From NCBI GenBank assembly GCA_964436045.1, contig CAYTBN010000027.1, positions 1,409-65,408 of the forward strand: a stretch of DNA of 64,000 nucleotides, written 5' to 3'. The position numbers and the translations under genes are program-made. Of this stretch, positions 1 through 43,516 are shown one piece after another. A model generated the notes under the pieces. That model searched no databases. It had not been told where the DNA came from and was given only the letters and a program-made list of their open reading frames with translations. Position 1 is the stretch's first letter. Each line of letters starts with the position of its first letter. The stretch is from an uncultured Rickettsiales bacterium. GTDB lineage: Bacteria; Myxococcota_A; UBA796; UBA9615; CAYRNR01.

Positions 1-817
1 GGGCCACGGTGATGGCGTGGACATCCTCGTGCCCCACGTCCAGCCCCTCCTCGATCTCGAAGTGGAAGTCCGACTGGTTGTTGAAGTCCACCAGCAGGTA
101 GCTCCCGTCGGGGTACCACAGGTACTCGGCCTCGTAGAGGTTGCCCGAGGGGTCCTCGTAGTGACGGGCAAGGAAGACGTCATCCGGGGTCTCCACGTTC
201 AGGTAGAGACCGTAGGGCTCGCCGTTGACCGTGACCCAGGCGTACCCGGCGCGCGGGGCGGGGATTCCAAGAGCCGCGAACGCCGCAAAGGCCAGCCGCT
301 CCTTGGCGAAGGAGCAGTCGACGACCATGTTGTTCAGGGTCAGCTTCTCCAGGCCGTGGAGGGTCTGGCCGTCGACGAAGCGGTTGATGTCGATCTTGAA
401 CGCGGCCTTGGCGCTCAGGTCCCGGAACGAACCGATGCGTCCCTTGAGGCGGACGCCCACGTCGTCCACCGGCTCGCCGTCGAACACGATGTCGCCCTGC
501 ACGTAGCCGTAGGGGTCGACCCACAGGGAATCGACGGCGGCCGGCTCCAGCTGGATATCGAGGGTGTGGACCGCGTCGAGGGTGAACATCCAGCCCGCTG
601 GATCGTCGACGCCGCCCACGTGCTCCAGCGGCGGCGAGGCGTCGTCGTCGCCGGAGGTGTCGTCGTCGGAGACGTCGTCGTCGGCCGTGTCGTCATCGGC
701 CGGCTCTCCACCCGTGCCGGGGGTGCTCATCACGCCCACCGGGCTGCAGGCGCAGAGCGTCAGCAGCGGGATGGCCAGCGGGGCGATCGGGAGAAGGGAA
801 GCCGGCTCGGGCAGCAT
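1..817 (-). CDS. CotH kinase family lipoprotein (partial; C-terminus lies beyond window start)
   Basis: Minus-strand frame opens at ATG 815-817 and runs to position 1 without a stop. It has a lipoprotein signal (LLTLCAC lipobox) followed by a poly-Asp linker (PADDDTADDDVSDDDTSGDDD). The CotH-like core (LKGRIGSF...AAFKIDINRF...LTLNNMVVDCSFAKERLAF...VTVNGEPYGLYLNVETPDD) is paralogous to the two plus-strand CotH ORFs downstream. Not in the ORF track because no stop falls in the window. Confidence 0.7.
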   Translation of the reverse strand, partial: MLPEPASLLPIAPLAIPLLTLCACSPVGVMSTPGTGGEPADDDTADDDVSDDDTSGDDDASPPLEHVGGVDDPAGWMFTLDAVHTLDIQLEPAAVDSLWVDPYGYVQGDIVFDGEPVDDVGVRLKGRIGSFRDLSAKAAFKIDINRFVDGQTLHGLEKLTLNNMVVDCSFAKERLAFAAFAALGIPAPRAGYAWVTVNGEPYGLYLNVETPDDVFLARHYEDPSGNLYEAEYLWYPDGSYLLVDFNNQSDFHFEIEEGLDVGHEDVHAITVA

Positions 818-916
818 CCGCTCATTCTACCACCGCGCAACCGCCTACCCCCCATTCGCCCGCATCGGGCGATCCTGGTATCTTCAGGTAGGGTAAGTGG
901 GCTGGAGGCGAGACGA

Positions 917-1507
917 ATGGAAAGCTGGACCCTGTTGCGCGGACTGTTGCCCTGGATCGGCATACTCGCCCTGCTGGGCTGCGACGCCGTGATGGACGAC
1001 GACGACGACGCCACGGGCGATGACGACTCTGCGGGTGATGACGACGACGATGACGACGACGACAGCGCGTCGTTCGCCTGGGAGCTGTGCATCAACGAGT
1101 TCATGGCGGCCAACGCGACCACGATCCAGGACGACACCGGCGTTTTCACGGACTGGATCGAGCTGTACAACATGACCGACGAGGACGTGGATCTGGCCGG
1201 GTTCACGATCACGGACAACCTGGACAATCCGGACAAGCACGTGCTGGCCGCGCCCCTGACCGTGCCGGCCCGGGGGCACCTGCTGCTGTGGGCGGACGGT
1301 CTGCCCGATGTGGGCGCCGAGCACCTGGGGTTCCAGCTGGCCCGCGAGGGCGAGGAGCTGGGCCTCTACGACCCGACTGGAACCGTGCTCAACCACCTGG
1401 AGTACGACGAGCAGGCCACCGACTGGTCGGCGGCGCGGATGCCCGACGGCGAGCTGGATGGCTGGGTCATCGACGCCACGCCCACCCCGGGCCTGTCGAA
1501 CGAATGA
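917..1507 (+). CDS. Lamin-tail-domain (LTD) lipoprotein with poly-Asp linker
   Basis: ATG at 917 is preceded by GGAGG. It has a signal peptide with LLGC lipobox, then a DDDDDATGDDDSAGDDDDDDDDD linker. The LTD-like motif is CINEFMAANATT...DWIELYN...ITDN. Its stop overlaps the next start (ATGA). Confidence 0.7.
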   Translation: MESWTLLRGLLPWIGILALLGCDAVMDDDDDATGDDDSAGDDDDDDDDDSASFAWELCINEFMAANATTIQDDTGVFTDWIELYNMTDEDVDLAGFTITDNLDNPDKHVLAAPLTVPARGHLLLWADGLPDVGAEHLGFQLAREGEELGLYDPTGTVLNHLEYDEQATDWSAARMPDGELDGWVIDATPTPGLSNE

Positions 1508-2781
1508 GCGCGCGCATCCCCGTTGCGGTGACGCTCGGCGGTCTGCTCGCCCTCGCGAGCTGCACCCCGGGCGGCCTGGTGCGGCTGGAGGGCATACCCG
1601 AGGATCCACCCGACGCCCCGCTGGAGCACGTGGGCGGCGCGGACCAGCCGGGCGAGCCTCCGCTGGAGGCCGTGGAGGGCGTCGGCGATCTGAGCGCTCC
1701 CATGTTCGCGGGCGACGAGATCCCGACCTTCCACCTGACCCTGTCGACCGCGGCGATGGAGTCCCTGCACCAGGCCTACCTGGACTGGATCTACTCCGGG
1801 ATCGTGTTCACCGAGTACGTCGAGGGTTCGTTCGAGTACGACGGCGTGGTCTACGAGCCGGTGGGGATCCGGCTCAAGGGGCAGGGGTCGGCGCTGGACG
1901 TGTACGACAAGGCCGCGTTCAAGGTGAAGTTCAACGAGTACACCCCCGGCGCGCGCTTCATGGGCCTCGAGTGCCTGACCCTGAACAACATGTCGGTCGA
2001 CTACAGCATGATGCACGAGCGGCTCGCGTACCGGATCTACCGCGAGGCAGGCGTGCCCGCCTCGCGCTCCGGCCACGCGATGGTGACCGTCAACGGTGAG
2101 CTGTACGGGCTGTACGCCAACGTCGAGACCCCGGACATCCACATGATCGAGCGCTGGTTCGAGCGCACCGACGGCACCCTGTTCGAGGGCTGGGACGTGG
2201 ACTTCACCGCCGAGTACATCCCCTACTTCCAGCTGGAGTTCGGGCCGGACGATCGAGACAACCTGTGGGGGCTGGCCGAGGCGCTGGCGACGCCGGGCCC
2301 GCATGCCCTGGAGGTCGCCGAGGAGTACGTCGACCTGCAGGCCTTCCTGCGCTACTGGGCGGTGGGGGCCGTGGTCGGCCAGTTCGACGCCTACCCCTAC
2401 ACCTGGCCCGGCGACGACTTCCACGTCTACGACGATCCCGAGGCGGGCCAGCTGCGCTTCATCCCCTGGGGCGTGGACGAGACGTTCTACTTTCCGACGA
2501 ACTCGGTGGACTACGTCTACGGAGTGCTGGCCGTCCGCTGCCTGGAGTCGGGCACTTGCCGCCAGGCCTGGGAGGCCGAGGTGTGGGCGGTGCACGACAT
2601 GGCGGTAGCCCTGGACTGGGCCGGCGAGTTCGAGACGATCCAGGCCCAGATCGCACCGCTGGTGGCCCAGGACACCATGAAGCCCTACAGCAACTCCGAT
2701 GTGGCGTACTACCAGGCGGTGATGCAAGGCATGATCGAGACCCGCGCGACGGATCTGATCACCCTGATCGGGCCACCGTGA
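1504..2781 (+). CDS. CotH kinase family lipoprotein
   Basis: ATG 1504 overlaps the upstream stop. Lipobox is LALASC. CotH-like motifs include IRLKGQGS, AAFKVKFNEY, LTLNNMSVDYSMMHERLAY, VTVNGELYGLYANVETPD and FIPWGVDETF. Confidence 0.8.
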   Translation: MSARIPVAVTLGGLLALASCTPGGLVRLEGIPEDPPDAPLEHVGGADQPGEPPLEAVEGVGDLSAPMFAGDEIPTFHLTLSTAAMESLHQAYLDWIYSGIVFTEYVEGSFEYDGVVYEPVGIRLKGQGSALDVYDKAAFKVKFNEYTPGARFMGLECLTLNNMSVDYSMMHERLAYRIYREAGVPASRSGHAMVTVNGELYGLYANVETPDIHMIERWFERTDGTLFEGWDVDFTAEYIPYFQLEFGPDDRDNLWGLAEALATPGPHALEVAEEYVDLQAFLRYWAVGAVVGQFDAYPYTWPGDDFHVYDDPEAGQLRFIPWGVDETFYFPTNSVDYVYGVLAVRCLESGTCRQAWEAEVWAVHDMAVALDWAGEFETIQAQIAPLVAQDTMKPYSNSDVAYYQAVMQGMIETRATDLITLIGPP

Positions 2782-4421
2782 CGCCAGCCGTGTCGCGCTT
2801 CGCTTCCCCCCTCCGTTCGCCGATCTGGACCGCCTGCCTGCTGGGTCTGACGAGTTGCATGGGCCCGGGGGGGATCGTGCTGATGCCCGGATCGGGGGCG
2901 GGGGAGCCGCCGCTGGAACAGGTGGGCCCCGCGGCGGTGTCGTCCTGCGATCCGGAGGCCGTGGTCGATCAGCCCTTCCTGACCGAGGGGGACGAGGTCC
3001 AGCTGTCGTTCCACTGCGCATCCGGCGAGCCGGCCGATGCGTTCGAGGCCGACCTGATCAGCTCCGCCGACGGCGCGGAGCTGGACCCGCTGACGTGGTC
3101 CGTGAGCTGGTCGACGGGGTTCGCGGACGGAGGACGCCACGAGTTCCTGCTGTCCGTGCGGCCCGCCGCGGCGGCGGGCGTGGGCCACGACGCCGTACCC
3201 GAGACCGCGGTGGGCACGGTCTGGGTCGCCGACGCCCTCGGCCACCCGGCGAACGAGCCGGTGGTGCCGTCGCTCTACACCGAGGAGTGGGGGCTACCGG
3301 TGCTTCACCTGTTCCCGGGCGGTGAGCTGACCCAGGAACACGTGCCCACCATCATCACGTTCATGGGGCGGACCTACGACGCCGAGATGAAGATCCGCGG
3401 CGCAGCCAGCGTGTACTACCCCAAGAACAGCTACACCCTGCGCTTCGGTGACGAGGATCTGGACACCGGCGAGCTGGGACTCGGCACCAAGGACCACCTG
3501 GTCCTGATCACCAGCTTCGACGACAACAGCTACGTGCGCCAGAAGCTGGCCTACGACCTGTGGGCGGCCATTGCCGATCACTGGCAGCGCGACCGGCTGA
3601 CGCCGCGGACGTTCTTTGCGGTGGTCTATCTGAACGGCGAGTACTGGGGCCTGTTCACCGCCTGCGACCGCATCGACGACCACTTCGCCGAGGAGATGGG
3701 GCTCAGCCGCGAGGGCAACCTCTACAAGGCGATCAACCACGACGCCAACTTCTACAGCACCGGCTACTCGGGCTGGCCCAAGGAGACCCTGCACCAGGGG
3801 TACACCAAGGAGGAGGGGGAGCCGGCGGACGGCGAACCCGGGGCCTTCGACGACCTGGACGAGCTCGTGGCGTGGGCGTCGACCGCCAGCCAGTCCGACT
3901 TCATCGACCAGATGGAGGGCTGGTTCCGGGTGGACGAGTTCATGGACTGGCTGCTGTTCGTCCACTACACGGCGTCCGGCGACTCCGGTGGCAAGAACGC
4001 CTACCTGTACAACGACCTCGAGGCACCGGAGTTCCGCTACGCCCCCTGGGACTTCAACCACTCCTTCGGCCAGGGGTGGACCACCTACCGCATCGAACCC
4101 TACACGTACGACGACTTCACCTGGACCAACGGCATCTTCGCCCACTTCCAGGCCCACCCGGAGACGAGCGACGAGCTGTGGACGCGCTTCGACGAGCTGT
4201 GCGAATCCGGCCCCCTGCACGCGGACTGGTTCACCTCGCGGCTCGACGAGTACTACGCCCGGATCCATCCCTCGGCGCAGCGCGACTGGTCGGTGTGGGG
4301 GGCGTCCTACCTGAGCTACTGGGCAGCCTACAACGACCTGACCTACCCCGAGGAGCGCGCCTACCTCTACGACTGGCTGGCCGAGCGCGACTCCTGGGCC
4401 TGGGCCGATCACCCCCAGTGA
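2778..4421 (+). CDS. CotH kinase family lipoprotein (longer paralog)
   Basis: GTG 2778 overlaps the upstream stop (GTGA). Lipobox is LLGLTSC. The CotH-like core includes KIRGAASVYYPKNSYTLRF, VYLNGEYWGLF, NLYKAINHDANF and APWDFNHSFGQ. Confidence 0.8.
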   Translation: MTPAVSRFASPLRSPIWTACLLGLTSCMGPGGIVLMPGSGAGEPPLEQVGPAAVSSCDPEAVVDQPFLTEGDEVQLSFHCASGEPADAFEADLISSADGAELDPLTWSVSWSTGFADGGRHEFLLSVRPAAAAGVGHDAVPETAVGTVWVADALGHPANEPVVPSLYTEEWGLPVLHLFPGGELTQEHVPTIITFMGRTYDAEMKIRGAASVYYPKNSYTLRFGDEDLDTGELGLGTKDHLVLITSFDDNSYVRQKLAYDLWAAIADHWQRDRLTPRTFFAVVYLNGEYWGLFTACDRIDDHFAEEMGLSREGNLYKAINHDANFYSTGYSGWPKETLHQGYTKEEGEPADGEPGAFDDLDELVAWASTASQSDFIDQMEGWFRVDEFMDWLLFVHYTASGDSGGKNAYLYNDLEAPEFRYAPWDFNHSFGQGWTTYRIEPYTYDDFTWTNGIFAHFQAHPETSDELWTRFDELCESGPLHADWFTSRLDEYYARIHPSAQRDWSVWGASYLSYWAAYNDLTYPEERAYLYDWLAERDSWAWADHPQ

Positions 4422-28690: not shown

Positions 28691-31246
28691 TCAGGTGCCC
28701 CCGTCCATTTCCAGTAGACGCCGCAGGAGGATGCGTACCTCCGTGGCTTCGCGGCCGTTGGGAGCCAATCCAATATAGGTCTGATACTCGTTGATCGCCT
28801 GGTCGTTGCGCCCGAGTTGCTCGTAGGCCAGGCCCAGGCCGTAGTGCGACTCGGCGTTCATCGAATCCAGATTCACCGCGCTGCGGAAGTTGTCCGCGGC
28901 CTGCACCGCGCTTCCGATCTCGATGTAGGCCCAGCCGAGCCCCCGCAGCGCGCGAGCGTCCTTGCGGTTGGCATCCAGCGCCTTCTGATAGGACTGGATG
29001 GCCTCGGCGTACTGCCGCTTCGCGGCCAGCGCGTCGCCCTCCTGGGTGTAGTTGACCACCGGGTCCGAGTCCCCGCCCACCGCCACGAGTTCGAACGCCG
29101 GGCTCGGCGTCGGCGGCTCGGGCGTCGGTGGCTCGGGCGTCGGTGGCTCGGGTGTCGGCGGCTCGGGTGTCGGCGGCTCGGGCGTCGGCGGCTCGGGCGT
29201 GGGGTCCTCGACCTCGGCCTCTCCCCCGGTCTCGGCTCCGGTCTCGGCTCCGATCTCGGCCCCGGTCTCGGCTCCGGTCTCGGCTCCAGCCTCGGACCCG
29301 GCCCCCTCCGCGGGCGCTCCCCCTACCCAGACGCTGCTCCCCTCCTCCGGATCGGCCTCCCCGCCGGCGGCCGCCGCGCCGTCCTCGGCCACCCAGTCCA
29401 GCTGCCGATCGGTGCTGCTCTTCATCGAACGGACCACGTAGGTCGTTCCCAGGCCGATGGCGATGATCAGGACCGCGGCGCCGACGAAGTACCCCAGGCG
29501 GCCGCCGCTCCCCTCCTCTTCCTCGTCATCGTCGAAGTCGAATCCTTGATCAAATCCCTGGTCGTACTCCTCGGGCTTCGACTCCTCCCAGAGGTCTCCA
29601 GCAGACGAGGCTGCACCCACCGACGGCTCGTCTTCCGCGTCCATCCCCTCCCGGAACGACCGCTCGAAGCGCTCGAATTCCTGGCCCAGGTGCTCCATCT
29701 TCTCGCCGGGCGTCTCCGGGGACGGCTCGGTCGATGAATCGAAGCCGGCCGCGGTCTCGTCCATCGAGTCCCACATCGCCGTGATCTTCTCGTCGAGCAC
29801 GGGGCCGGAATCGGGCGCCCCGGGATCCGGCTCGGGCGGCGATGGCAAGGAGTCGTCGAGGCCCGGCTCTTCGGGATCGGAGCCGGGCTCGGGTTGGAAT
29901 TCGGGCTCCGGCTCGGGCTCGGGCTCCGGCTCGGGCTCGGGCTCCGGCTCCGCATCGGGCTCCGGCTCGGGCTCGGGCTCGGGCTCCGCCTCGGCCACGG
30001 ACCCGGACTCCGGATGCCCCGTCGCCCCCAGATCGTCCGAACTCCAGTCGATGCCGGACGCGCTGAAGTCCGGGCTCTGGCCCACACCCACGGCGGATTC
30101 GAGGCTGTCGTCCCCGCCGTCCGACGACCAGGCGATGGGCGATCCGTCGACCGGAGGCGGTTCCGGGACGGGCTCGTCGGCGACGCTGTCGTCGTCCGCG
30201 TCACGTCCCACCTCGTCACCCTGCAACGAGGGCTCCACCACCACGCTCTGTGCCGACGGGTCGTAGCGCGGCTCCTCGATCCCCTGGGCCGCCAGCCGCG
30301 ACATGGTCTCCTTGGCCGCCCGGGGGATCGGCCCCTGGAGACCATCTCCGGTCAACGCCTCTTGCAGTTCGGCCTCGGTGGGTGCCTGGGCGGAAACGAC
30401 CTCCGGAGACTCGGCCGTGACCATCTCGGCGGTGTTGGGTTCGAGTTCGCCGGTGAGCGCCATCGACGCCGTGTCGCCCCCGTCCGGCGCGACCTCCCCC
30501 GAGCTGCTGCCGACGATGCGGTGCTCTAGGCTGGCGATCTCGTCCGACTCACCGAACTCCCCGCTGGAGTCGCCGGTGCCGCTGTCGACGACCTCGGAGT
30601 ATCCTCCGCTGCTGGGGGCCGCCCGGAACTCGGCGCTCTCGGGTTCGACCAGATCCTCGGGATCCGGGGTTGCGGTGGGATGGGCGAGGTGGACCAGCTT
30701 TTCCTCACGGCCCCCCTCCACGTGCTGCATCACCTCGCGGGTGGCATGGATCTCGGGCTCGTCGTCGCCGCCAGCGTCCCCGCTCTCGTCGCCGCTCTCG
30801 TCTCCGGAGGCCTGCCGGTGCTCGCCGGTCACGTAACCCCGCAGCCGGTCCCGGGTGTACTGAAGCTCACGCCGCGTCTCGCGCAGCAGACGGATCAGGT
30901 CGAAGAACGGCCGCAGCTCGGCCACCCGTCGCACCCGCTCCCAGCTCTCGCCGTCCACCGAGACCTGGTCGGTGGCCAGCACGCGCTTCTCGACGATCCA
31001 GCGCTGGAGGACCGACAGGTCCCGCACGGGGTAGGTCTTGCCTTCCTGGCGGAAGAACAGGCCAGGACCACCGGTGGCGTCGGCGTCGAGCCGACGCACC
31101 TCGTCACCGTCGTTCCGTGCCCCCTCTGGGTGGAACACGGTGAACACGTGGCTACAGGCGGAGCACTTGACCTTCGTCCCGCCTCCGGAGATGCGGTCGG
31201 GGTCGAAGGCATATTCGCTTCGGCAATCGGGGCAGGTGATACGCAC
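28691..31246 (-). CDS. MJ0042-type zinc-ribbon / GYF-like / acidic low-complexity / TM / TPR protein
   Basis: N-terminus [10 protein letters not shown]...KCSACSHVF (MJ0042 finger). A GYF/DUF4339-like segment ([14 protein letters not shown]) follows. Then a long acidic region with (EP)n and (PTPEP)7 repeats, one TM helix and C-terminal TPR repeats. Confidence 0.7.
29101..29204. repeat. Seven tandem 15-bp repeats (GGCTCGGGCGTCGGY) encoding (PTPEP)7 on the minus strand
   Basis: Near-perfect direct repeats seen directly in the sequence, in-frame within CDS 28691..31246. Confidence 0.85.
29903..29990. repeat. About 15 tandem hexamer repeats (GGCTCS) encoding a poly-(Glu-Pro) tract
   Basis: Seen directly. 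In-frame within CDS 28691..31246 ([25 protein letters not shown]). Confidence 0.85.
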
Positions 31247-31338
31247 GGTTCGATTGTACCCCCGGTGGATGGGTCCGTGGTACGTGGCCCCCTTGGCGTG
31301 CCGCCGGACGCGGCCGGCGGTACGCTGGGCTCCTCCGA

Positions 31339-33078
31339 TTAGGCTCCGTCAGCTCCCTGGATCTGGTCCAGCAGATCCTGGGCAGCCGGGACGGATCCTG
31401 CCGCCTTCTCCAGGTACGGCACCGCCGAGTCCTTCTTTCCGCAGCGGTGGTACGACAGACCCATCTTGTAATTGTAGTTCGCGTTCCCCGGGGCTTTCTT
31501 GAGGGCCTCGCGGAAACTGTTGATTCCACCGTTGCAGTCACCGCCGCCGAGGGCCGAGTCCCCGAGGAAGGCCCAGTCCTCGGCCGTGGTCTCCTCGATC
31601 TCCACGGTCTGGGCATCTCCATCGATGGATGTGTCGCCGTCATCGGTCTCGGCCGGCGTGGTCTCCGCCTCTTCGCGCTCGCGCCGCTCGCGCGCCGCCT
31701 CCGTCCGCGCCTCGCGCGCCTCCTTCCGCCGCTCTCGCTCGGCGGCCTCGGCCTCGGGATCCAGCGGCGCGGGCGGGGGCGTGGGATCCTCGCGGGTCGT
31801 GGCGTCCTCACGCTCGATGGGCTGGGGAGTGGGGTCGACCGCCACGTCCGCGGTACCGCCGTTGGTCTCTTCCTCGGCCAGGATCTTTTCGCGCTGCTTG
31901 TCGAGCTCACGCTGGATCCGCTCGGCTTCTTCCGTGCGGATCTTCTCCAGCTCGGCTTCCGAGATGCTCGATCGGGTGCGGTTGTCCTCACCGTCGCCAT
32001 CGCCGCGCATCGCGCTGCGGACGACGACCCCGATCAACAGGAGTGCCAGCACCACCACGACGCCCACGAGCAAGGGGTTGCCCAGGGGCAGTGACCCGCG
32101 CTTGGTGGCCGCCGCAGGTTTCTTGCGGCGGGGGCGGCGGCGACGGGACAGGTCGACCTTCAGGGCGTCGCCACCCTGGAGCTCGTCGAGGGCCGCCTTG
32201 TTCAGCGCAGCCAGGCTGGCGCTGGAGGCCCCGATCGCGACGGCGGCATTCTGCGGCGCCCCCTCGGCGGGAGCTCCTGCGTCCTCCCCGGAGCCCGACT
32301 CGCTCGCAGGCGGCGTCGGCGCAGACCTGGCTGGGGCGGCGTCCGCCAGATCCTCGGCCGCCTGGATCTGCCCGAAGAGCCGGGCGAGGTAGTCCTCGAG
32401 TTCGTCGTCGTTGCCGATGCGCGACCACTCGCGGCCATCGTGGGATATCTGGTCCTCCGCGTTCACCTTGCCGTTGCGGATCGAGCGGCGCAGGGTCGCG
32501 ATATCGGCGAAGTCGTAGGTCAGGCCGATGGCGACCTTGACCTTCCAACGGTCGATCCCCAGCCCCTGGAAGTCCAGGGCCTCGGAAGCCCGCACCGTCT
32601 GGGATCCGGATGGACCCTCCACGTCGGCGGCGACAACCACCTTCTCGGTCACGACCTGCGGTCCCGACGGGACCTCCTCGGGCGACGGCCGGCCGCGCTG
32701 GACGCCGAAGCTCGGCGGCTCGCGGGAACCACCTGGGACCACGTCGGGCTCGCCGCGCGCATCGGCCTCTTCCGCGTAGTCCGTCGAGAAGAGGTCCTCG
32801 GCGCGGAGCCCGCCGGGGAGCTGGGCCGTCATCGGCGTCGGAGCCGTGCCGGAGACCGAGCCACGGGCCGGTCCGGGCGGCGTCACACGCCGGGAGGCCG
32901 GCTGGATCGCGTCGGTCTCCAGCGACACCACGGAGTGGGGGCCCGTCGCCTCCCGATCCTTGTTGAAGATGACGAACACGTGAGAACAACGGGGACAAGT
33001 GATCTTGGCCCCCCTGCCCTCGAGCTTCTTGCCCGGGAGCTTGTATTTCGCCTGGCAGTTCGGACAGGTGATGACCAT
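31339..33078 (-). CDS. MJ0042-type zinc-ribbon / GYF-like / TM / TPR protein (paralog of upstream gene)
   Basis: Start at [12 protein letters not shown]...CPRCSHVF (33078). A GYF-like segment ([14 protein letters not shown]) follows. Then a K/R-rich segment and TM ([18 protein letters not shown]), an acidic/ER-rich region and C-terminal TPR-like repeats. Confidence 0.7.
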
Positions 33079-37104: not shown

Positions 37105-37902
37105 TCAGTCTATCAGCAGGACGTAGGTGACGGGGGCGCCGTACGTGCCGGAGACGGCGACGCTGTACGCGCTGCCCCCCTCCAGCGGCGAGGACATGGT
37201 CTCGGGGGGGTAGAGGGTGTACTCGTCGGCTCCGGACTTGAACGCGCCGCTGCCCTCCAGCAGGAACATCCCGAGGTCGTTGTCCTTGGTGGGCCAGTAG
37301 AGGGTGAACGCCCAGGTGCCGCCCTGGATCGGCGCAAACCGGTAGTAGTCCATGTCGCCGTCGTAGTCGCCCTGGCCGTCCATCGCCAGCACGGTCAGGT
37401 CGCCGACGATGGCCATCGGGGTCGTGACGCCCCCCATGTTCTGGGATTCCTGGGGGATATCGTTGGGCTCGACCTCGAAGTAGAACGTGCGCCCCAGGTC
37501 CACCTCTCCGGCCAGGGCGCCGGAGGCGTTGCTGTCGGTGTCGACCAGCACGATCCCGATCTGCACAGAGTCGTTGGTCGCGAAGGGAGTCAAGTCGGTC
37601 TTGACCTCGCCCACGTCCGAGAACATCACCACCGCGGTGTCCGGCAGGTCGTAGACCGCCACTTGTTCGCCGTCCACCGACACCCGCAGCTCGCCCTCGC
37701 GGACGTTCTTCTGGGGATCGGTCCAGGCGAACTGGGCCCGCAACAACCACTTCTCGTAGTCCGGCTCCACCTCGAGCTCGCTGAGCACCGGAGCATTCGC
37801 AGGATCGCCGCCCAGGCCACCGTCCACCGCCACGAATCCCACCTGGCAGCCCGCGAGGGCCGCCGCGAGGGTGAACGTGAGCCCGATGATCGCGACACGC
37901 AT
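37105..37902 (-). CDS. Hypothetical lipoprotein
   Basis: Start at MRVAIIGLTFTLAAALAGC (LAGC lipobox). No known domain. Confidence 0.5.
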   Translation of the reverse strand: MRVAIIGLTFTLAAALAGCQVGFVAVDGGLGGDPANAPVLSELEVEPDYEKWLLRAQFAWTDPQKNVREGELRVSVDGEQVAVYDLPDTAVVMFSDVGEVKTDLTPFATNDSVQIGIVLVDTDSNASGALAGEVDLGRTFYFEVEPNDIPQESQNMGGVTTPMAIVGDLTVLAMDGQGDYDGDMDYYRFAPIQGGTWAFTLYWPTKDNDLGMFLLEGSGAFKSGADEYTLYPPETMSSPLEGGSAYSVAVSGTYGAPVTYVLLID

Positions 37903-38041
37903 GACGGTTCCTCCACGGTGACCGACGGTCCCGTGCATCTACTGAATGGAACCCGCCGCGGGGCAGGCTGTCAAGGGCGAGCCGGTGCGTGACGGCCCCT
38001 GGGAGCGCTGGTAAGATGCGTGCCTCATCGAGGAGGTTGTC

Positions 38042-38704: not shown

Positions 38705-39196
38705 CTACTCGGGTTCCAGAGCCACCACCGGAACCAGGAACCAGTCCTTGGGCAGACTGCGGTCCGACAGGTACCACAGCTGCGTTTCGGTCCGATCCAC
38801 CAGGTTCAGGGTGGTCGATTCCACCTCGCGTAACGAGATGCGTATCTCGGCGCGGGTGTTCTCCTCGTCCACCAGCACGAAGTCGACGACAGCCTCGTCG
38901 ACCGTGGGATGCTGGGCCAGTGGATCCGTCATCCGCTGCAGGAAGGTCACCTGGTCGTTGGTGTCCTCGTAGTACTTGGAGGCCTCCTGGAAGTCGCGCC
39001 AGCGCATGGCGATCAGGTACTCGTCCACGCGCTTGCGGACCGCCTTGATCGCCTTCTCGTGCAGGCGCTGCTTCTTGCGGTACTCGACCTTGGCCTTGCG
39101 CTCCGGGTTGGCGGGCGCGAGGGTCGGGGTGGCCAGGGTCAGCGCGATGGCGGTCGCCAGCCAGCCCAGGTGAATGCGGGCTCTAGATGCCGTCAT
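38705..39196 (-). CDS. Small secreted hypothetical protein
   Basis: Signal peptide is MTASRARIHLGWLATAIALTLATPTLAPA. About 160 aa. It overlaps the upstream gene end by 14 nt. Confidence 0.45.
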   Translation of the reverse strand: MTASRARIHLGWLATAIALTLATPTLAPANPERKAKVEYRKKQRLHEKAIKAVRKRVDEYLIAMRWRDFQEASKYYEDTNDQVTFLQRMTDPLAQHPTVDEAVVDFVLVDEENTRAEIRISLREVESTTLNLVDRTETQLWYLSDRSLPKDWFLVPVVALEPE

Positions 39197-40808
39197 CGAT
39201 GAGGTCCTTTGTGGGCGCCTCGGGGAACCGGGGCATGGTGGGACGGATCTGCAGGCCGATGCGGAACCCCACGTAGCCCGGCTTGGGTAGCGCGGGTGGG
39301 TCCACGTAGGCGTCAAGCAGGGCCGAGTCGGGATAGGGGTCGACGGTGAACACCCGCGCCTGGGGCGGCCGCGCGCTCACCGCGATCGGCAGGTTGGCGG
39401 TGAGCGCGACGTTGGGCGTGAACTCGATCACCACACCTGGCTCGATCACGAAGGTCTGGTCGTTGTAGCGCTCGGACGGGGCCCAGTACCAGGGCCCGCT
39501 GAATTCGTAGCGCTCCGGGTTCCCCAGGTCGGGCCACAGCATCACGCCAAACCCGCCGGCGATGGTGGGTTTCACGCGCCACACCGCCACCGGGTAGAAG
39601 CGTAGCTTCCAGGCCATCCCGTAGGTACGGATCTGGCTGCTGCTCTCGATGGGGATCGGGTACGGCTGGACCGCGCCCGGCTCGTCGCCGAATTCGTATT
39701 TCTGCAGGATCACGTTCAGCCGGCTGAAGGTCATCGTGCCGGTGAACTCGAAGTCCAGGAAGGGCGTGATGCCGAAGCCGAGGGTGGCGCCCATCGAAAA
39801 ACCGCTTCCGCGGCGCGGCTGCAGGGTGGACACGCTGTCGGCCACGTTCCGCGGATCGTCCTGCTCGAAGATATAGCTGCCAGTGAAGTCCAGCTCCAGC
39901 GGTCCGAACAGCGAGCCGAACTCGATGCCGATGATCGGCTGGCCGAAGTGGTTGGCGGCCCGGGTCTTCCAGGTGTCCAGGTCCAGACGCGAGTTGTGCC
40001 AGCGGATGTACTGGCTCTTGGTCAGGCCCGCCTCTTCCCAGACGGTGGAGACCAGCTCGGCATCGTCCTGTTCGGCCAGGTCCTGTTCGCTGATGTGTGT
40101 GCGCCGGACCTCGATGCTGCCCGCCAGGGGCTGGTAGGCGCTGTCCGGGAGCATCAGGTCCAGCACCCGCAGCGCCGCGCGCTCCTTCTGGCGGCGGCGG
40201 CGATCCAGCTCCTGACCGTCGAGGCGCGTCTCGTCGGTGAGCTCGTTGCGGTCGTAGGGATCGGCGAGCTCCTCCAGGGTGAGCTCGACCGCCTCGATCA
40301 GGGTGGCGTCATCCTCGACCCCCAGCTGGACCTCGAAGCTGTACTCGAGCTCGGCGAGGCCCACGCCGAGGAAGGTGATAGTCACGATCCGGCGTTCGCC
40401 GTCCAGTCGCACGGAACCGCTGACCACCCGGTCGGCCTCGGCATTCTCGCCCACGATCAGCTGGCAGCCCAGCTCCTGGTCTGGCGGGCAGCCGCGCATG
40501 TAGAGCGACGCGCCGATGGTGGAGTTGCCGTCGTAGATCGCCGGGACGTCGCTGAGTCGGCGGACCGTCAGGTGATCGCGAAGCTCGAGGCCCTCGATCA
40601 GCACCCGGGTCATGCCGGTGGTCGCGTCGACCGAATCCACGTTGGCGGGGAGCAGCGGCACGACCAGCACCGCCTGGGCGGTCCGATCGCCCCGGGGAAG
40701 GGAGTAGTCTTCGGGGCTGTCCTCGTACGACCGGTCGGCGTCCTGCGCTGCCGCCGGACCGCCGATCAGCAGCCCCACCAGGGGCAGCAACCACCTCAGC
40801 TCACGCAC
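39183..40808 (-). CDS. Secreted/outer-membrane-associated hypothetical protein
   Basis: Signal peptide is MRELRWLLPLVGLLIGGPAAAQ. 541 aa. The C-terminal half is rich in alternating aromatic/Gly beta-strand-like segments, suggesting a possible beta-barrel. Confidence 0.5.
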   Translation of the reverse strand: MRELRWLLPLVGLLIGGPAAAQDADRSYEDSPEDYSLPRGDRTAQAVLVVPLLPANVDSVDATTGMTRVLIEGLELRDHLTVRRLSDVPAIYDGNSTIGASLYMRGCPPDQELGCQLIVGENAEADRVVSGSVRLDGERRIVTITFLGVGLAELEYSFEVQLGVEDDATLIEAVELTLEELADPYDRNELTDETRLDGQELDRRRRQKERAALRVLDLMLPDSAYQPLAGSIEVRRTHISEQDLAEQDDAELVSTVWEEAGLTKSQYIRWHNSRLDLDTWKTRAANHFGQPIIGIEFGSLFGPLELDFTGSYIFEQDDPRNVADSVSTLQPRRGSGFSMGATLGFGITPFLDFEFTGTMTFSRLNVILQKYEFGDEPGAVQPYPIPIESSSQIRTYGMAWKLRFYPVAVWRVKPTIAGGFGVMLWPDLGNPERYEFSGPWYWAPSERYNDQTFVIEPGVVIEFTPNVALTANLPIAVSARPPQARVFTVDPYPDSALLDAYVDPPALPKPGYVGFRIGLQIRPTMPRFPEAPTKDLIDDGI

Positions 40809-40876: not shown

Positions 40877-41719
40877 TCAGGGGCTCAGGGCAACCCGGTG
40901 GGCGGAGATGTCCCCGGTCATGACGACGCCCAGGATCTCACCCTCGAAGCTGCCCTCCATCTCGTCGGAGGCCACGAACGAACCGGCGTAAGCGGTCGGC
41001 AGATCGAACCAGCCGAGGACGGAGATGCCGATCTCCCCGTCGATGGAGTCGCCGAGGATGTCGCCGCTGATCACCAGGTCCAGATCCAGATCCAGGTAGC
41101 CCGCGATGCTGGCGATGCAGGCGCCGGTACCGTCCAGCACCTCGCCGTAGGGGTCGACGATGAAGTCCACGGCCCCCACGCAGGCGCCGGAGATCGGGAC
41201 GCCCTGGATATCGAGGGCGATGCCGACGTTGACCGTTCCCGAGTAGACGCCGGCGTACTCGTGCTGGACCAGGATCCCACCGACCGCGTAGGTCAGCCGG
41301 TCCCCGTTGGGCAGCTCGGTCTCGGCCTTGATCACGTGCTCGCCGACCGGGAAGTCCTCGAACTCGCCGCTGGCGCCCACGTACTCGAAGGACTCGTCCT
41401 GATCGGTGGTCCAGAGGATCTCGTCGTAGCCCGTGGGATCGCCGTTCTCGTCCAGCACCTCGGCGTCCAGCAGCATCGGCGTGCCCAGCGGCACGAAGTC
41501 GCCCGACTCGGGCGAGTACACGACCAGCTCCGCGCCGTCCCACATGGAGTCGTCGTCCCCTGTGTCGTCGTCGTCGTCATCGTCATCGTCGGTCGGCGTG
41601 TCGTCGTCGCCGGTGTCGTCGTCATCGGCCGGAGGTGCCACGAGCCCCGTCTCCGAGCATCCCGCCAGTCCGAAGAGCAGCACGACAGCGAACACGAACA
41701 TGGTGTGCCAGCGACTCAT
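40877..41719 (-). CDS. Lipoprotein with poly-Asp linker
   Basis: Start MSRWHTMFVFAVVLLFGLAGC (lipobox). The linker PPADDDDTGDDDTPTDDDDDDDDDTGDDD follows. Then a beta-rich domain. Confidence 0.55.
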   Translation of the reverse strand: MSRWHTMFVFAVVLLFGLAGCSETGLVAPPADDDDTGDDDTPTDDDDDDDDDTGDDDSMWDGAELVVYSPESGDFVPLGTPMLLDAEVLDENGDPTGYDEILWTTDQDESFEYVGASGEFEDFPVGEHVIKAETELPNGDRLTYAVGGILVQHEYAGVYSGTVNVGIALDIQGVPISGACVGAVDFIVDPYGEVLDGTGACIASIAGYLDLDLDLVISGDILGDSIDGEIGISVLGWFDLPTAYAGSFVASDEMEGSFEGEILGVVMTGDISAHRVALSP

Positions 41720-42919: not shown

Positions 42920-43516
42920 CTACAGGTCTTCCATGGGGTGCATCGTGCACTCCGCGAAGTTCCCATCGTAGAAATCGGTGCAGCAGTACCAGACCTCGAA
43001 GTTGTGGCCCAGATTCTCGCAGACGAACAGGGACTCGTCAACCAGCGGCGGCCAGGTCATCGTGTAGTCCAGGTCCAGCCACCAGCTGTCCCAGAAGCCG
43101 TTCAGGTCGTCCCAGCCGAAGCTGTACTCGTCCGTTACCATCTCCCAACCGGGACGCTCGATGCCGCCGTAGTTGCAGGGATCGCCGGCAACGTCGAACC
43201 CCTCGCAGTAGCCCGGGTCCTCGGTCAGGTCCCACATCTCGACCCAGCAGTCCTCGGCCCAACCGTCCATCTCGACGAAGAAGTCGAACGTGCCGCTGGG
43301 CGGCGGCTCGTCCGACGAGCTCGGCACGTCGACCGTGCAGCCGGTCTCCAGATACGCGTTGCCCATGTCGATGGTGCCCGTGTAATCGGGCCGGTCGTCA
43401 TCCGTCGTGTCGTCGTCGTCACCGGCGGAATCGTCGTCATCCTCGACGGTCGGACAACCCCACATGATCAATCCCAAGCCCAGCATCAGCACGAGGAACA
43501 GGTTCGTGTTCTTCAT
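42920..43516 (-). CDS. Lipoprotein with poly-Asp linker and Trp/Cys-rich C-terminal domain
   Basis: GGGAGAGGA RBS precedes the start MKNTNLFLVLMLGLGLIMWGC. The linker is EDDDDSAGDDDDTTDDD. The C-terminal domain has many W/C/D residues (WDDLNGFWDSWWLDLDYTMTW). Confidence 0.55.
   Translation of the reverse strand: MKNTNLFLVLMLGLGLIMWGCPTVEDDDDSAGDDDDTTDDDRPDYTGTIDMGNAYLETGCTVDVPSSSDEPPPSGTFDFFVEMDGWAEDCWVEMWDLTEDPGYCEGFDVAGDPCNYGGIERPGWEMVTDEYSFGWDDLNGFWDSWWLDLDYTMTWPPLVDESLFVCENLGHNFEVWYCCTDFYDGNFAECTMHPMEDL

Follow-up and report, generated by a model that had tools for sequence, protein, structure and literature searches.

Poly-aspartate tracts beside the anchor cysteine of unrelated lipoproteins in a high-GC metagenomic lineage: a probable disordered polyanionic tether

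Bacterial lipoproteins are exported, lipidated on a cysteine and cleaved by an established route consisting of Sec, Lgt, LspA and Lnt. How Gram-negative bacteria other than Bacteroidota and Neisseria select lipoproteins for the cell surface is still an open question, and the only sorting rules for Myxococcota known to us are a lysine at +2 (inner membrane) and an alanine at +7 (matrix). Poly-Asp and Asp-rich proteins are classic binders of calcium and minerals; those of biomineralisation and the calsequestrin-type buffers are soluble matrix or lumenal proteins of eukaryotes. This report concerns interrupted runs of aspartic acid (poly-Asp tracts) close to the lipobox cysteine of four predicted lipoproteins, among them a lamin-tail-domain (LTD) protein on which the analysis was centred. 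They are encoded in a stretch of 64,000 nucleotides, called the window below, from a metagenome-assembled genome (MAG) titled "uncultured Rickettsiales bacterium" (GenBank assembly GCA_964436045.1, contig CAYTBN010000027.1, positions 1,409 to 65,408). Judging from its sequence, a tract of this type is probably an intrinsically disordered polyanionic tether, which connects the anchor cysteine with the folded passenger at whichever end of the protein the anchor stands.

Several described systems are comparable. About half of the outer-membrane (OM) lipoproteins of Escherichia coli (RcsF, NlpD, Pal) possess disordered N-terminal linkers, which are needed for trafficking by the Lol route (bioRxiv 10.1101/2021.01.05.425367). 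In Bacteroidota, acidic residues after the cysteine are a proven signal for surface export, the lipoprotein export signal (LES; K-(D/E)2, or SDDDD in B. fragilis), which comprises 4-5 residues at the fixed positions +2 to +6 (PMC5080379). Surface lipoproteins of Acinetobacter and Burkholderia which depend on a secretion system of type II (T2SS) have N/D- or G/D-rich motifs in the positions P2'-P8'; the motif of this T2SS/GspN route, defined as more than 4 residues (G/S or N/D) within P2'-P8', is reported to be required, but not sufficient (PMC12802150). The MYXO-CTERM tag is reported to occur universally in Myxococcota and to be specific to them; the proteins which bear it are proposed to be lipidated on a cysteine and delivered to the surface by the T2SS, and TraA contains a disordered region beside its MYXO-CTERM (PMC11980579).

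The window (68% GC) was translated in all six reading frames and searched with the expression D{3,}.{1,4}D{3,}; interrupted Asp runs were found at four loci only. All four tracts lie in frame within open reading frames (ORFs) supported by their GC content at third codon positions (GC3), shortly downstream of a signal peptide with a terminal lipobox cysteine. The focal gene (917..1507, plus strand) encodes an LTD lipoprotein of 196 amino acids (aa; Pfam LTD, E=5.4e-13), with signal peptide and lipobox at 917..982 (MESWTLLRGLLPWIGILALLG followed by Cys22, codon 980-982) and the tract DDDDDATGDDDSAGDDDDDDDDD at 995..1063 (17 Asp in 23 residues). On the minus strand, 1..817 contains the 5' portion of a gene for a CotH-family lipoprotein (ATG at 817; Pfam CotH, E=6.5e-22; GC3 0.92); the complete gene, of 439 aa, is present on contig JAMYFY010094387 (full-length sequence from locus L001). 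Its signal peptide and lipobox are encoded at 746..817 (MLPEPASLLPIAPLAIPLLTLCA followed by Cys24, codon 748-746) and its tract DDDTADDDVSDDDTSGDDD at 641..697 (12 Asp in 19 residues). The other two proteins, for which no Pfam family was found, are designated lp3 and lp4, and both are encoded on the minus strand. The first, at 40877..41719, has 280 aa and an all-beta, two-domain passenger (AlphaFold2 (AF2) model, mean pLDDT 87); signal peptide and lipobox (MSRWHTMFVFAVVLLFGLAG followed by Cys21) are at 41657..41719 and the tract DDDDTGDDDTPTDDDDDDDDDTGDDD at 41549..41626 (19 Asp in 26 residues). The second, at 42920..43516, is a Cys- and Trp-rich lipoprotein of 198 aa with an atypical lipobox (MKNTNLFLVLMLGLGLIMWG followed by Cys21, Trp at -2; 43454..43516) and the tract DDDDSAGDDDDTTDDD at 43394..43441 (11 Asp in 16 residues).

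By signal peptide and lipobox criteria, all four are predicted lipoproteins of the Lgt/LspA type. Basic residues are present in the n-regions of LTD (R8), lp3 (R3) and lp4 (K2), each followed by about 11-16 hydrophobic residues, as judged by eye and by script; the signal peptide of CotH is the weakest of the four, with a good h-region and an n-region lacking Lys or Arg. The lipoboxes read LLGC (LTD), LAGC (lp3), LCAC (CotH) and MWGC (lp4), the consensus being [LVI][ASTVI][GAS]C, and WGC and FGC lipoboxes recur in lp4 orthologues and in lipoproteins of related MAGs. Trp at -2 (L/I/M-W-G-C), which is outside the usual consensus, was observed in the window (43454-43465, minus strand) and at loci L063, L087, L094 and L108 of the lineage. 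Ahead of the Asp run the mature window proteins begin with CDAVM, CSETG, CPTVE and CSPVG.

Between the cysteine and the tract there are 4 residues in LTD, 4 in lp4, 10 in lp3 and 16 in CotH, overall about 4-17 and not "within about 10" as in a preliminary description of this DNA, whose coordinates and gene calls were correct. The tracts comprise 16-26 residues, 11-19 of them Asp, and their first residue is at protein positions 26-41. At the DNA level the window contains two occurrences of the pattern which encodes DDDTGDDD, versus 0 in 100 shuffles. With random placement, the chance that 4/4 tracts are located at most 30 residues from a lipobox cysteine would be about 1e-7; this estimate was based on about 19,000 coding residues and about 12 lipobox cysteines in the window. 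Searches of the mature domains against Pfam identified CotH and LTD, and nothing for lp3 and lp4; BLASTP among the four families yielded a best E of 0.87, i.e., no relatedness between mature domains. Recurrence on four unrelated lipoproteins, the central observation of the preliminary description, is thus real, while its long consensus, DDDDxTGDDDxxxDDDDDDDDD, can be recognized loosely in LTD and lp3, but not in CotH and lp4.

About 4 of the 12 predicted lipoproteins of the window carry a tract, and about 8, including an RlpA-like one, do not. A motif present on most lipoproteins and fixed in length had been named beforehand as the contrary outcome; the tract is neither universal, as these numbers and the corresponding 26% in related MAG loci (see below) indicate, nor fixed in length.

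A position as a spacer, which had been suggested in the same place, is supported by predicted disorder, by the constant siting beside the anchor cysteine and by a homologue in which the tract moves together with the anchor. The AF2 model of lp3 consists of two beta domains with pLDDT >90, and residues 21-57 are without secondary structure; in blocks of 10 residues, pLDDT over residues 21-50 is 45-53, with the segments 22-32 and 34-38 below 50. In lp4, for which the model is mediocre (pLDDT 68, 6 sequences), residues 8-37, which contain most of the tract, have pLDDT <50. The linker from the cysteine to the first domain measures 36 aa in LTD and 38 aa in lp3, and was estimated from sequence as about 22 aa in lp4 and about 35 aa in CotH; by a criterion of the El Rayes type, these proteins are thus predicted to contain an unstructured segment of at least about 20 residues between the cysteine and the first folded domain. 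Like the linkers of E. coli OM lipoproteins, the tracts occur directly after the cysteine, are unstructured, are found on unrelated proteins and appear to favour length and disorder over sequence. Because roughly one E. coli OM lipoprotein in two has a linker of this kind, a frequency of the tracts between a minority and one half is normal. Unlike the E. coli linkers, which are neither polyanionic nor periodic nor made of a single residue, the tracts are about 66% Asp, without basic residues, generated by repeats and unstable in length.

The proposed function would be as follows. The protein would be exported, lipidated on the cysteine and cleaved, as the lipobox and the Sec/Lgt/LspA/Lnt pathway suggest. 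The cysteine would be followed by a neck of 4-17 residues and then by 16-26 residues of the form (Asp3-4 + about two small residues)n, with a net charge of about -11 to -19. From its composition, a polyanionic chain of this kind should be unable to collapse or fold; being repelled by the anionic membrane, the extended chain would hold the passenger several nanometres away from it, and the tract might bind divalent cations loosely.

Homologues of lp3, LTD and lp4 provided information on what is conserved. For lp3, 26 homologues with 34-100% identity were obtained, and the anchor cysteine is invariant in all of them. Their linkers are 21-65 aa long, and every homologue with at least 51% identity in the domains has 15-28 Asp, in rearranged order; in the remoter ones, linkers rich in D, T, G and S take the place of poly-Asp. 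Linkers of LTD homologues comprise 7-79 aa; long Asp runs occur mostly at identities of at least 72%, with P0074 and P0086 as more distant exceptions, and of the remaining homologues some have a Cys-rich CxDGxDNDGDG motif, some D/T/G repeats, and others nothing of the kind. Among lp4 homologues the N-terminal tract varies from 16 to about 64 aa (P0035, mainly repeats of the DDDDSAG type), or a tract is situated at the C-terminus instead. The latter is the case in P0036, which has an ordinary signal peptide with neither a lipobox nor an N-terminal tract, and a C-terminal poly-Asp tract directly before GGCSCG, a hydrophobic transmembrane (TM) helix and a basic tail. This swap of the anchor implies that the relevant feature is proximity to the lipidated cysteine rather than an N-terminal location. 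The alignments indicate conservation of tract acidity across orthologues, and not of sequence or length. In the syntenic relative L127 (2643-4670, plus strand), lp4 is present as a tandem triplicate (197, 202 and 213 aa), and the acidic linker of each copy is different.

The DNA pattern for DDDTGDDD was also used for scanning GTDB species, each represented by one genome; at least 116 stretches were listed, with at least 120 motif-bearing ORFs. Isolated matches in Gordonia, Streptomyces, Bifidobacterium and others were out of context or in the wrong frame. The other listed matches came from a few dozen uncultured MAGs, many matches per MAG. One group has 65-75% GC and the title "uncultured Rickettsiales bacterium"; the other has about 60% GC and titles which include "Deltaproteobacteria bacterium" (both FR_14 and HK-STAS-FEN-2), "bacterium CTOTU..." and RS363 (Red Sea). 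About a dozen of the "Rickettsiales" MAGs (loci L009-L119; CAZITQ01, CAZDDH01, CAZOYV01, CAZXHG01, CAZBPN01 and others) have 64-75% GC; tails matching MYXO-CTERM were seen in CAZDDH, CAZXHG and CAZOYV, and similar tails with CxC, TM helix and Arg in others. Because of the high GC content and the tails of the MYXO-CTERM type, the title "Rickettsiales" is almost certainly wrong, and these MAGs would likely be Myxococcota; at least some of the motif-rich MAGs are. The protein cluster of the focal LTD gene is labelled "Myxococcota bacterium" (MAG) at NCBI, and genes of the window recur on contigs from metagenomes, with lengths up to 89 kb.

Among the at least 120 listed ORFs, there are 66 in which the tract follows a hydrophobic stretch and [GAS]C within 70 residues, 11 in which it stands before CxC, a TM helix and RRRR, 6 in which it stands before a terminal GCGC-like end, and 13 which are cut by the edge of the locus. 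In predicted lipoproteins which had not been ascertained through the motif, a tract was present on 27/102 (about 26%), versus 23/831 other ORFs (Fisher p=6e-15); the 23 include 4 lipoproteins missed by the filter, 4 ORFs cut by an edge, at least 12 with the tract beside a C-terminal Cys motif and 2 in the wrong frame. The poly-Asp habit is therefore lineage-wide in uncultured high-GC MAGs, where about one lipoprotein in four has a tract, and is not the property of a special gene. The phenomenon is thus broader than first noted, with two carriers located just upstream of the window and others in related MAG lineages; a comparison of the window proteins with the at least 116 loci by tblastn produced two matches only, both weak.

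The best-matching profile for the CxC tails is TIGR03901 (MYXO-CTERM), at 16.5-23.8 bits versus a cut-off of 20; L013 (23.8 bits) and L009 (21.1 bits) are above it, and P0036 and three others reach 16.5-19.9 bits. C-terminal tracts before MYXO-CTERM-like tails were observed at L009, L013, L046, L054, L063, L064, L073, L074 and L079. As in MYXO-CTERM proteins and TraA, disorder precedes an invariant, proposedly lipidated cysteine, and the poly-Asp of the relatives adjoins tails of the TIGR03901 type; unlike them, the four window proteins use N-terminal lipoboxes, and the disordered region of TraA has not been described as poly-Asp. No C-terminal cysteine with TM helix and Arg tail was found in any ORF of the window; tails satisfying or approaching the MYXO-CTERM model occur in the relatives only. 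Several large proteins of the MAGs with about 60% GC have a C-terminus of poly-Asp and a bare "GCGC" (or GCGK, GGCCGC), with the stop codon directly thereafter (L110(-), L025(+), L060(-), L067(-), L029(-), L095(+), L091(+)), and possess neither TM helix nor Arg tail; in at least some (L110, L095) a terminator-like hairpin and a T run follow the stop. The bare GCGC end may be a minimal C-terminal motif for Cys lipidation or sorting.

In 64 carriers the runs consist mostly of 3-4 Asp and the spacers mostly of 2 residues of T, G, A, S or V, a pattern partly biased by the TG of the search motif. The tract starts at a median of 6.5 residues after the cysteine (range 1-22) and has a median length of 38 aa (range 4-104). 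The ratio of Asp to Glu is 1661:6, and Lys plus Arg account for 2 of 2507 tract residues. From these counts and the homologues it can be seen that Asp composition is kept, and Lys, Arg and Glu are all but absent, while sequence and length appear to be free. The passengers of these 64 proteins belong to 50 Pfam families, e.g., GH92, GH88, PNGase F, FGE-sulfatase, RCC1, PKD, NHL, beta-helix and LTD; non-carrier lipoproteins include RlpA-type proteins, amidase, SBP and TPR proteins, and also CotH and MtrC-like cytochromes. No curated family was found for the poly-Asp N-terminus: NCBIfam yielded nothing, and the only additional profile match was Pfam DUF7537 over signal peptide and tract of lp3, which is below threshold (22 bits vs cut-off 31.7). 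A phmmer search of 1.84 billion representatives with a bare 32-aa tract returned 0 matches, presumably due to composition filters and the short query, and no published description of poly-Asp lipoprotein tethers was found in full-text literature searches for Asp-rich lipoprotein linkers. An acidic proteome of the halophile type was considered and ruled out, since the cytoplasmic ORFs of the window are near neutral and strong acidity is restricted to exported proteins.

As to the origin of the tracts, BLASTN of the four N-terminal coding regions revealed no DNA similarity beyond the GAC-rich tracts; signal peptides and flanking sequences were not aligned. A mobile or duplicated cassette shared by the four genes was ruled out on these grounds, and the "shared module" of the preliminary description is not one by descent. 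Rather, the comparisons indicate that tracts originate and alter where they stand, as GAC-rich units of 12-21 nt are duplicated in tandem and slip, and that those of the four window genes would represent independent origins. With Tandem Repeats Finder (TRF), a period of 12 (GATGACGACGAC, 2.2 copies, 100% match, a perfect duplication) and one of 18 were detected in the LTD tract, and a period of 15 (3.7 copies) in that of CotH. The paralogous CotH lipoprotein at 1504..2781 (plus strand, 34% identical to the carrier) has no tract and reads CTPGGLVRLEGIPEDPPDAPLEHVGG where the carrier reads ...GGEPADDDTADDDVSDDDTSGDDDASPPLEHVGG; the CotH tract would accordingly be an insertion into a pre-existing linker. 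An orthologue (L127:9762-10589, plus strand) of the tract-less window lipoprotein 37105-37938 contains a short DDDD-SAG insertion, which implies that tracts are gained and lost between orthologues.

Changes in length were examined in 16 pairs drawn from clusters at 90% identity; the partners are 82-100% identical if the tract is disregarded. Of the internal indels, 10/10 were inside the tract and 0 elsewhere. Two DDDDSAG units are the sole difference between P0035 and P0054 on one side and P0052 and P0053 on the other, with 100% identity elsewhere; P0038, about 95% identical to lp3 of the window, has 8 extra tract residues; and the length differences within the clusters are +8, +1, -1 and -3 aa. 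The repeat is thus length-variable, as had been proposed, and shifts of this size between alleles otherwise identical could suggest a contingency or phase-variable locus, where an in-frame repeat would switch the length of the linker for variation of display or for evasion of phages or predators. This, however, is very improbable. The longest perfect (GAC)n in the window tracts has 5 units, since the runs are broken by GAT and spacer codons, and a trinucleotide period is unable to turn expression on or off. On 15 contigs, which represent at least 6 samples, one and the same focal LTD protein is encoded, with no other allele at 90% identity or more; its cluster contains a single other allele, 88% identical and one residue different in length. 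Variation in length was observed only between alleles of different contigs or samples. Hypermutability in the sense of a contingency locus was therefore not retained. A search of JGI metagenome contigs which combined the precise flanking sequences of the LTD tract with a gap of variable size had no match, not even with the window allele.

The same data bear on a neutral by-product, i.e., that GAC-rich repeats expand by slippage wherever a disordered segment tolerates them and that linkers near the anchor are the most tolerant. Periodic units of 12-21 nt, the confinement of every indel to the tract, gain and loss between orthologues and paralogues, and the D/T/G/S-rich linkers in distant homologues all agree with it, as do the Asp codons: GAC:GAT is 49:10 in the tracts and 65:18 in the remainder of the same genes, i.e., a similar ratio. 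(Encoding by GAC and GAT, as originally reported, is evident from these counts.) Other periodic low-complexity linkers also exist in the window, namely (EP)n, (AETG)n and (PEPPT)n in ORF 28691-31348. Nevertheless, neutrality as the whole explanation seems rather doubtful, because all lp3 orthologues down to 51% identity remain rich in Asp although the sequence has turned over completely, because Lys, Arg and Glu are excluded, and because the tract is nearly absent from linkers away from the anchor cysteine. An expected cost of translation points in the same direction: the start of the tracts at residues 26-41 is a mild argument against neutrality, should such a cost apply. Origin and turnover of the tracts are explained by slippage; the lasting charge density, the avoidance of Lys, Arg and Glu and the restriction to the vicinity of the anchor are not.

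As a sorting determinant, poly-Asp beside the lipidated cysteine would divert the protein from the Lol route, which leads to the periplasmic face, to surface export by the T2SS or another translocon; the protein would be displayed on the cell surface or matrix, and the role of the tract as a spacer would be secondary. We hold this to be possible, but unlikely. The precedents of LES, of the T2SS-dependent lipoproteins and of the MYXO-CTERM proteins are in its favour, the latter particularly since poly-Asp precedes MYXO-CTERM-like tails in the relatives. Gly or Pro is found at +2 in 36/64 poly-Asp lipoproteins versus 12/66 others; Lys at +2, the inner-membrane signal of M. xanthus, in none of the 64 carriers; and K or R at +2 to +8 in 2/64 carriers versus 23/66 others. 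Moreover, the passengers are typically extracellular (GH92, GH88, PNGase F, PKD, LTD, beta-helix).

With LES the tracts share an acidic cluster near the +1 cysteine, occurrence on a subset of lipoproteins and passengers of extracellular type (PMC5080379). Judged by an LES of K, Q or S plus 2-4 Asp or Glu in positions +2 to +6, they differ in size (16 to more than 100 residues), in a start anywhere from +2 to +23 and in phylum; in the window, the Asp runs begin at +6 (LTD), +6 (lp4, with Glu at +5), +12 (lp3) and +18 (CotH). A drift of 1-22 residues from the cysteine is difficult to reconcile with a signal such as LES, which is position-critical (PMC5080379). Similarity to the T2SS/GspN motif, N/D- or G/D-rich after the cysteine, is found in the many MAG relatives which begin with C-G-(G)-D-D-D-D, e.g., CGDDDDD or CGGDDDD; of the window proteins, LTD (CDAVMDDD) and lp4 (CPTVEDDD) have 3-4 acidic residues within P2'-P8', and lp3 and CotH do not fit. 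The drift apart, points against sorting are that Asp introduced at +7 of FibA from M. xanthus stopped its export to the matrix (PMC3222651), that proteins lacking poly-Asp also include likely surface proteins (CotH, MtrC-like cytochromes), and that no export machinery is linked to these genes, their neighbours being housekeeping genes. An extended form of this idea, in which poly-Asp would be a lineage-specific address label, a myxobacterial counterpart of LES common to lipobox and MYXO-CTERM proteins, read by the T2SS or an unknown translocon and with its length tuning the stand-off, appears quite doubtful on present sequence evidence.

A structural clue to surface location came from lp3. The best matches of its model in the PDB with Foldseek were the TbpB C-lobe, NHBA and fHbp, i.e., Neisseria surface lipoproteins, although weakly (E 2e-4, TM 0.33-0.50); the possible resemblance, a handle domain plus beta-barrel, is weak and may be taken as a lead only. 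TbpB, fHbp and NHBA, for which a handle and an 8-stranded barrel are characteristic, depend on Slam, with DUF560 encoded adjacently. Downstream of lp3 there are a conserved ORF of 541 aa (39183-40808, minus strand) and one of 163 aa (38705-39196, minus strand), neither of which has a Pfam match, and the trio is syntenic in a relative with 66% identity (L127, L128).

Calcium binding had likewise been considered in the preliminary description. As a cation-binding element, the tract would be a polyanion of low affinity and high capacity for Ca2+, Mg2+ or mineral surfaces, which we rate as rather unlikely; a variant, in which it would form a bridge to lipopolysaccharide (LPS) or exopolysaccharide or would buffer divalent cations at the envelope, is to be viewed with the same reserve. 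The use of Asp almost to the exclusion of Glu is suggestive, as is the CxDGxDNDGDGxxDC motif which precedes the tract in several LTD homologues and many C-terminal cases; it resembles the "putative metal-binding motif" of Pfam Cu-binding_MopE, a family matched in 2/64 carriers. With the biomineralisation and calsequestrin proteins the tracts have in common long Asp runs interrupted by small residues and the character of a disordered polyanion; they differ in being a short tether on predicted membrane-anchored proteins of bacteria. No Ca-binding family (TSP type 3, EF-hand-like, RTX) was matched by the four proteins in Pfam and NCBIfam at E 0.01-0.1 or better, and length and sequence of the tract are unconstrained. 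Besides, binding of cations is compatible with a tether and hence not an exclusive alternative.

Several considerations weigh against the tether as preferred here. The account is drawn from sequence throughout, and near-pure Asp is needless for a passive spacer; the ratio of 1661:6 over Glu implies either a mutational origin from GAC slippage or a role specific to Asp, e.g., in recognition or in the binding of cations. The CotH paralogues at 1504..2781 and 2790..4421 (plus strand; the latter a third CotH lipoprotein) and about 70% of the lipoproteins manage without a tract. In E. coli, ribosomes are destabilised by N-proximal acidic runs with small residues if fewer than about 30 residues stand before the run (bioRxiv 10.1101/2021.02.02.429294); a tract beginning at residues 26-41 may therefore impose a cost of translation which a neutral spacer would not justify. 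The figures of the scan are lower bounds from a sample of MAGs ascertained via the motif, and carry no inference on absence from cultured Myxococcota; lipoproteins were predicted with a home-made filter; and short-read assemblies can mis-size repeats. Even so, the finding is statistically solid, and most likely it reflects how one lineage habitually composes its linkers and not a new system.

Some observations on the surroundings may be added. Directly upstream of position 1 of the window, an LTD lipoprotein (L001:283-954, minus strand) contains the CxDGxDNDGDGxxDC motif and then DDDDDSTGDDDD; a beta-helix lipoprotein, also upstream (L003:2687-3637, minus strand), has about 42 consecutive Asp, the length of the run being uncertain due to nearby Ns. 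Five predicted lipoprotein genes are adjacent (window 1-4421 and L001:283-2341), LTD and CotH on the minus strand, followed by LTD, CotH and CotH on the plus strand, and poly-Asp linkers are present on just some of them. The ORF 28691-31348 (minus strand) encodes 885 aa with an N-terminal zinc-ribbon-like CxxC...CxxC, one TM helix and C-terminal TPR-like repeats; the TRF score of its three arrays is up to 165, and they imply that the genome of the window builds other linkers from repeats, too.

Domain searches and gene callers mask poly-Asp tracts, and assemblies may mis-size them; in these MAGs, the tracts could serve for marking anchored exoproteins by sequence. Poly-Asp beside the cysteine on about a quarter of the lipoproteins and on many proteins of the MYXO-CTERM type provides a testable handle on lipoprotein sorting. 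Even as a tether and nothing more, the tract would be an extreme natural case of selection on composition and not on sequence; if an address label were true, the change of length driven by repeats would tune the distance of enzymes and adhesins from the cell.

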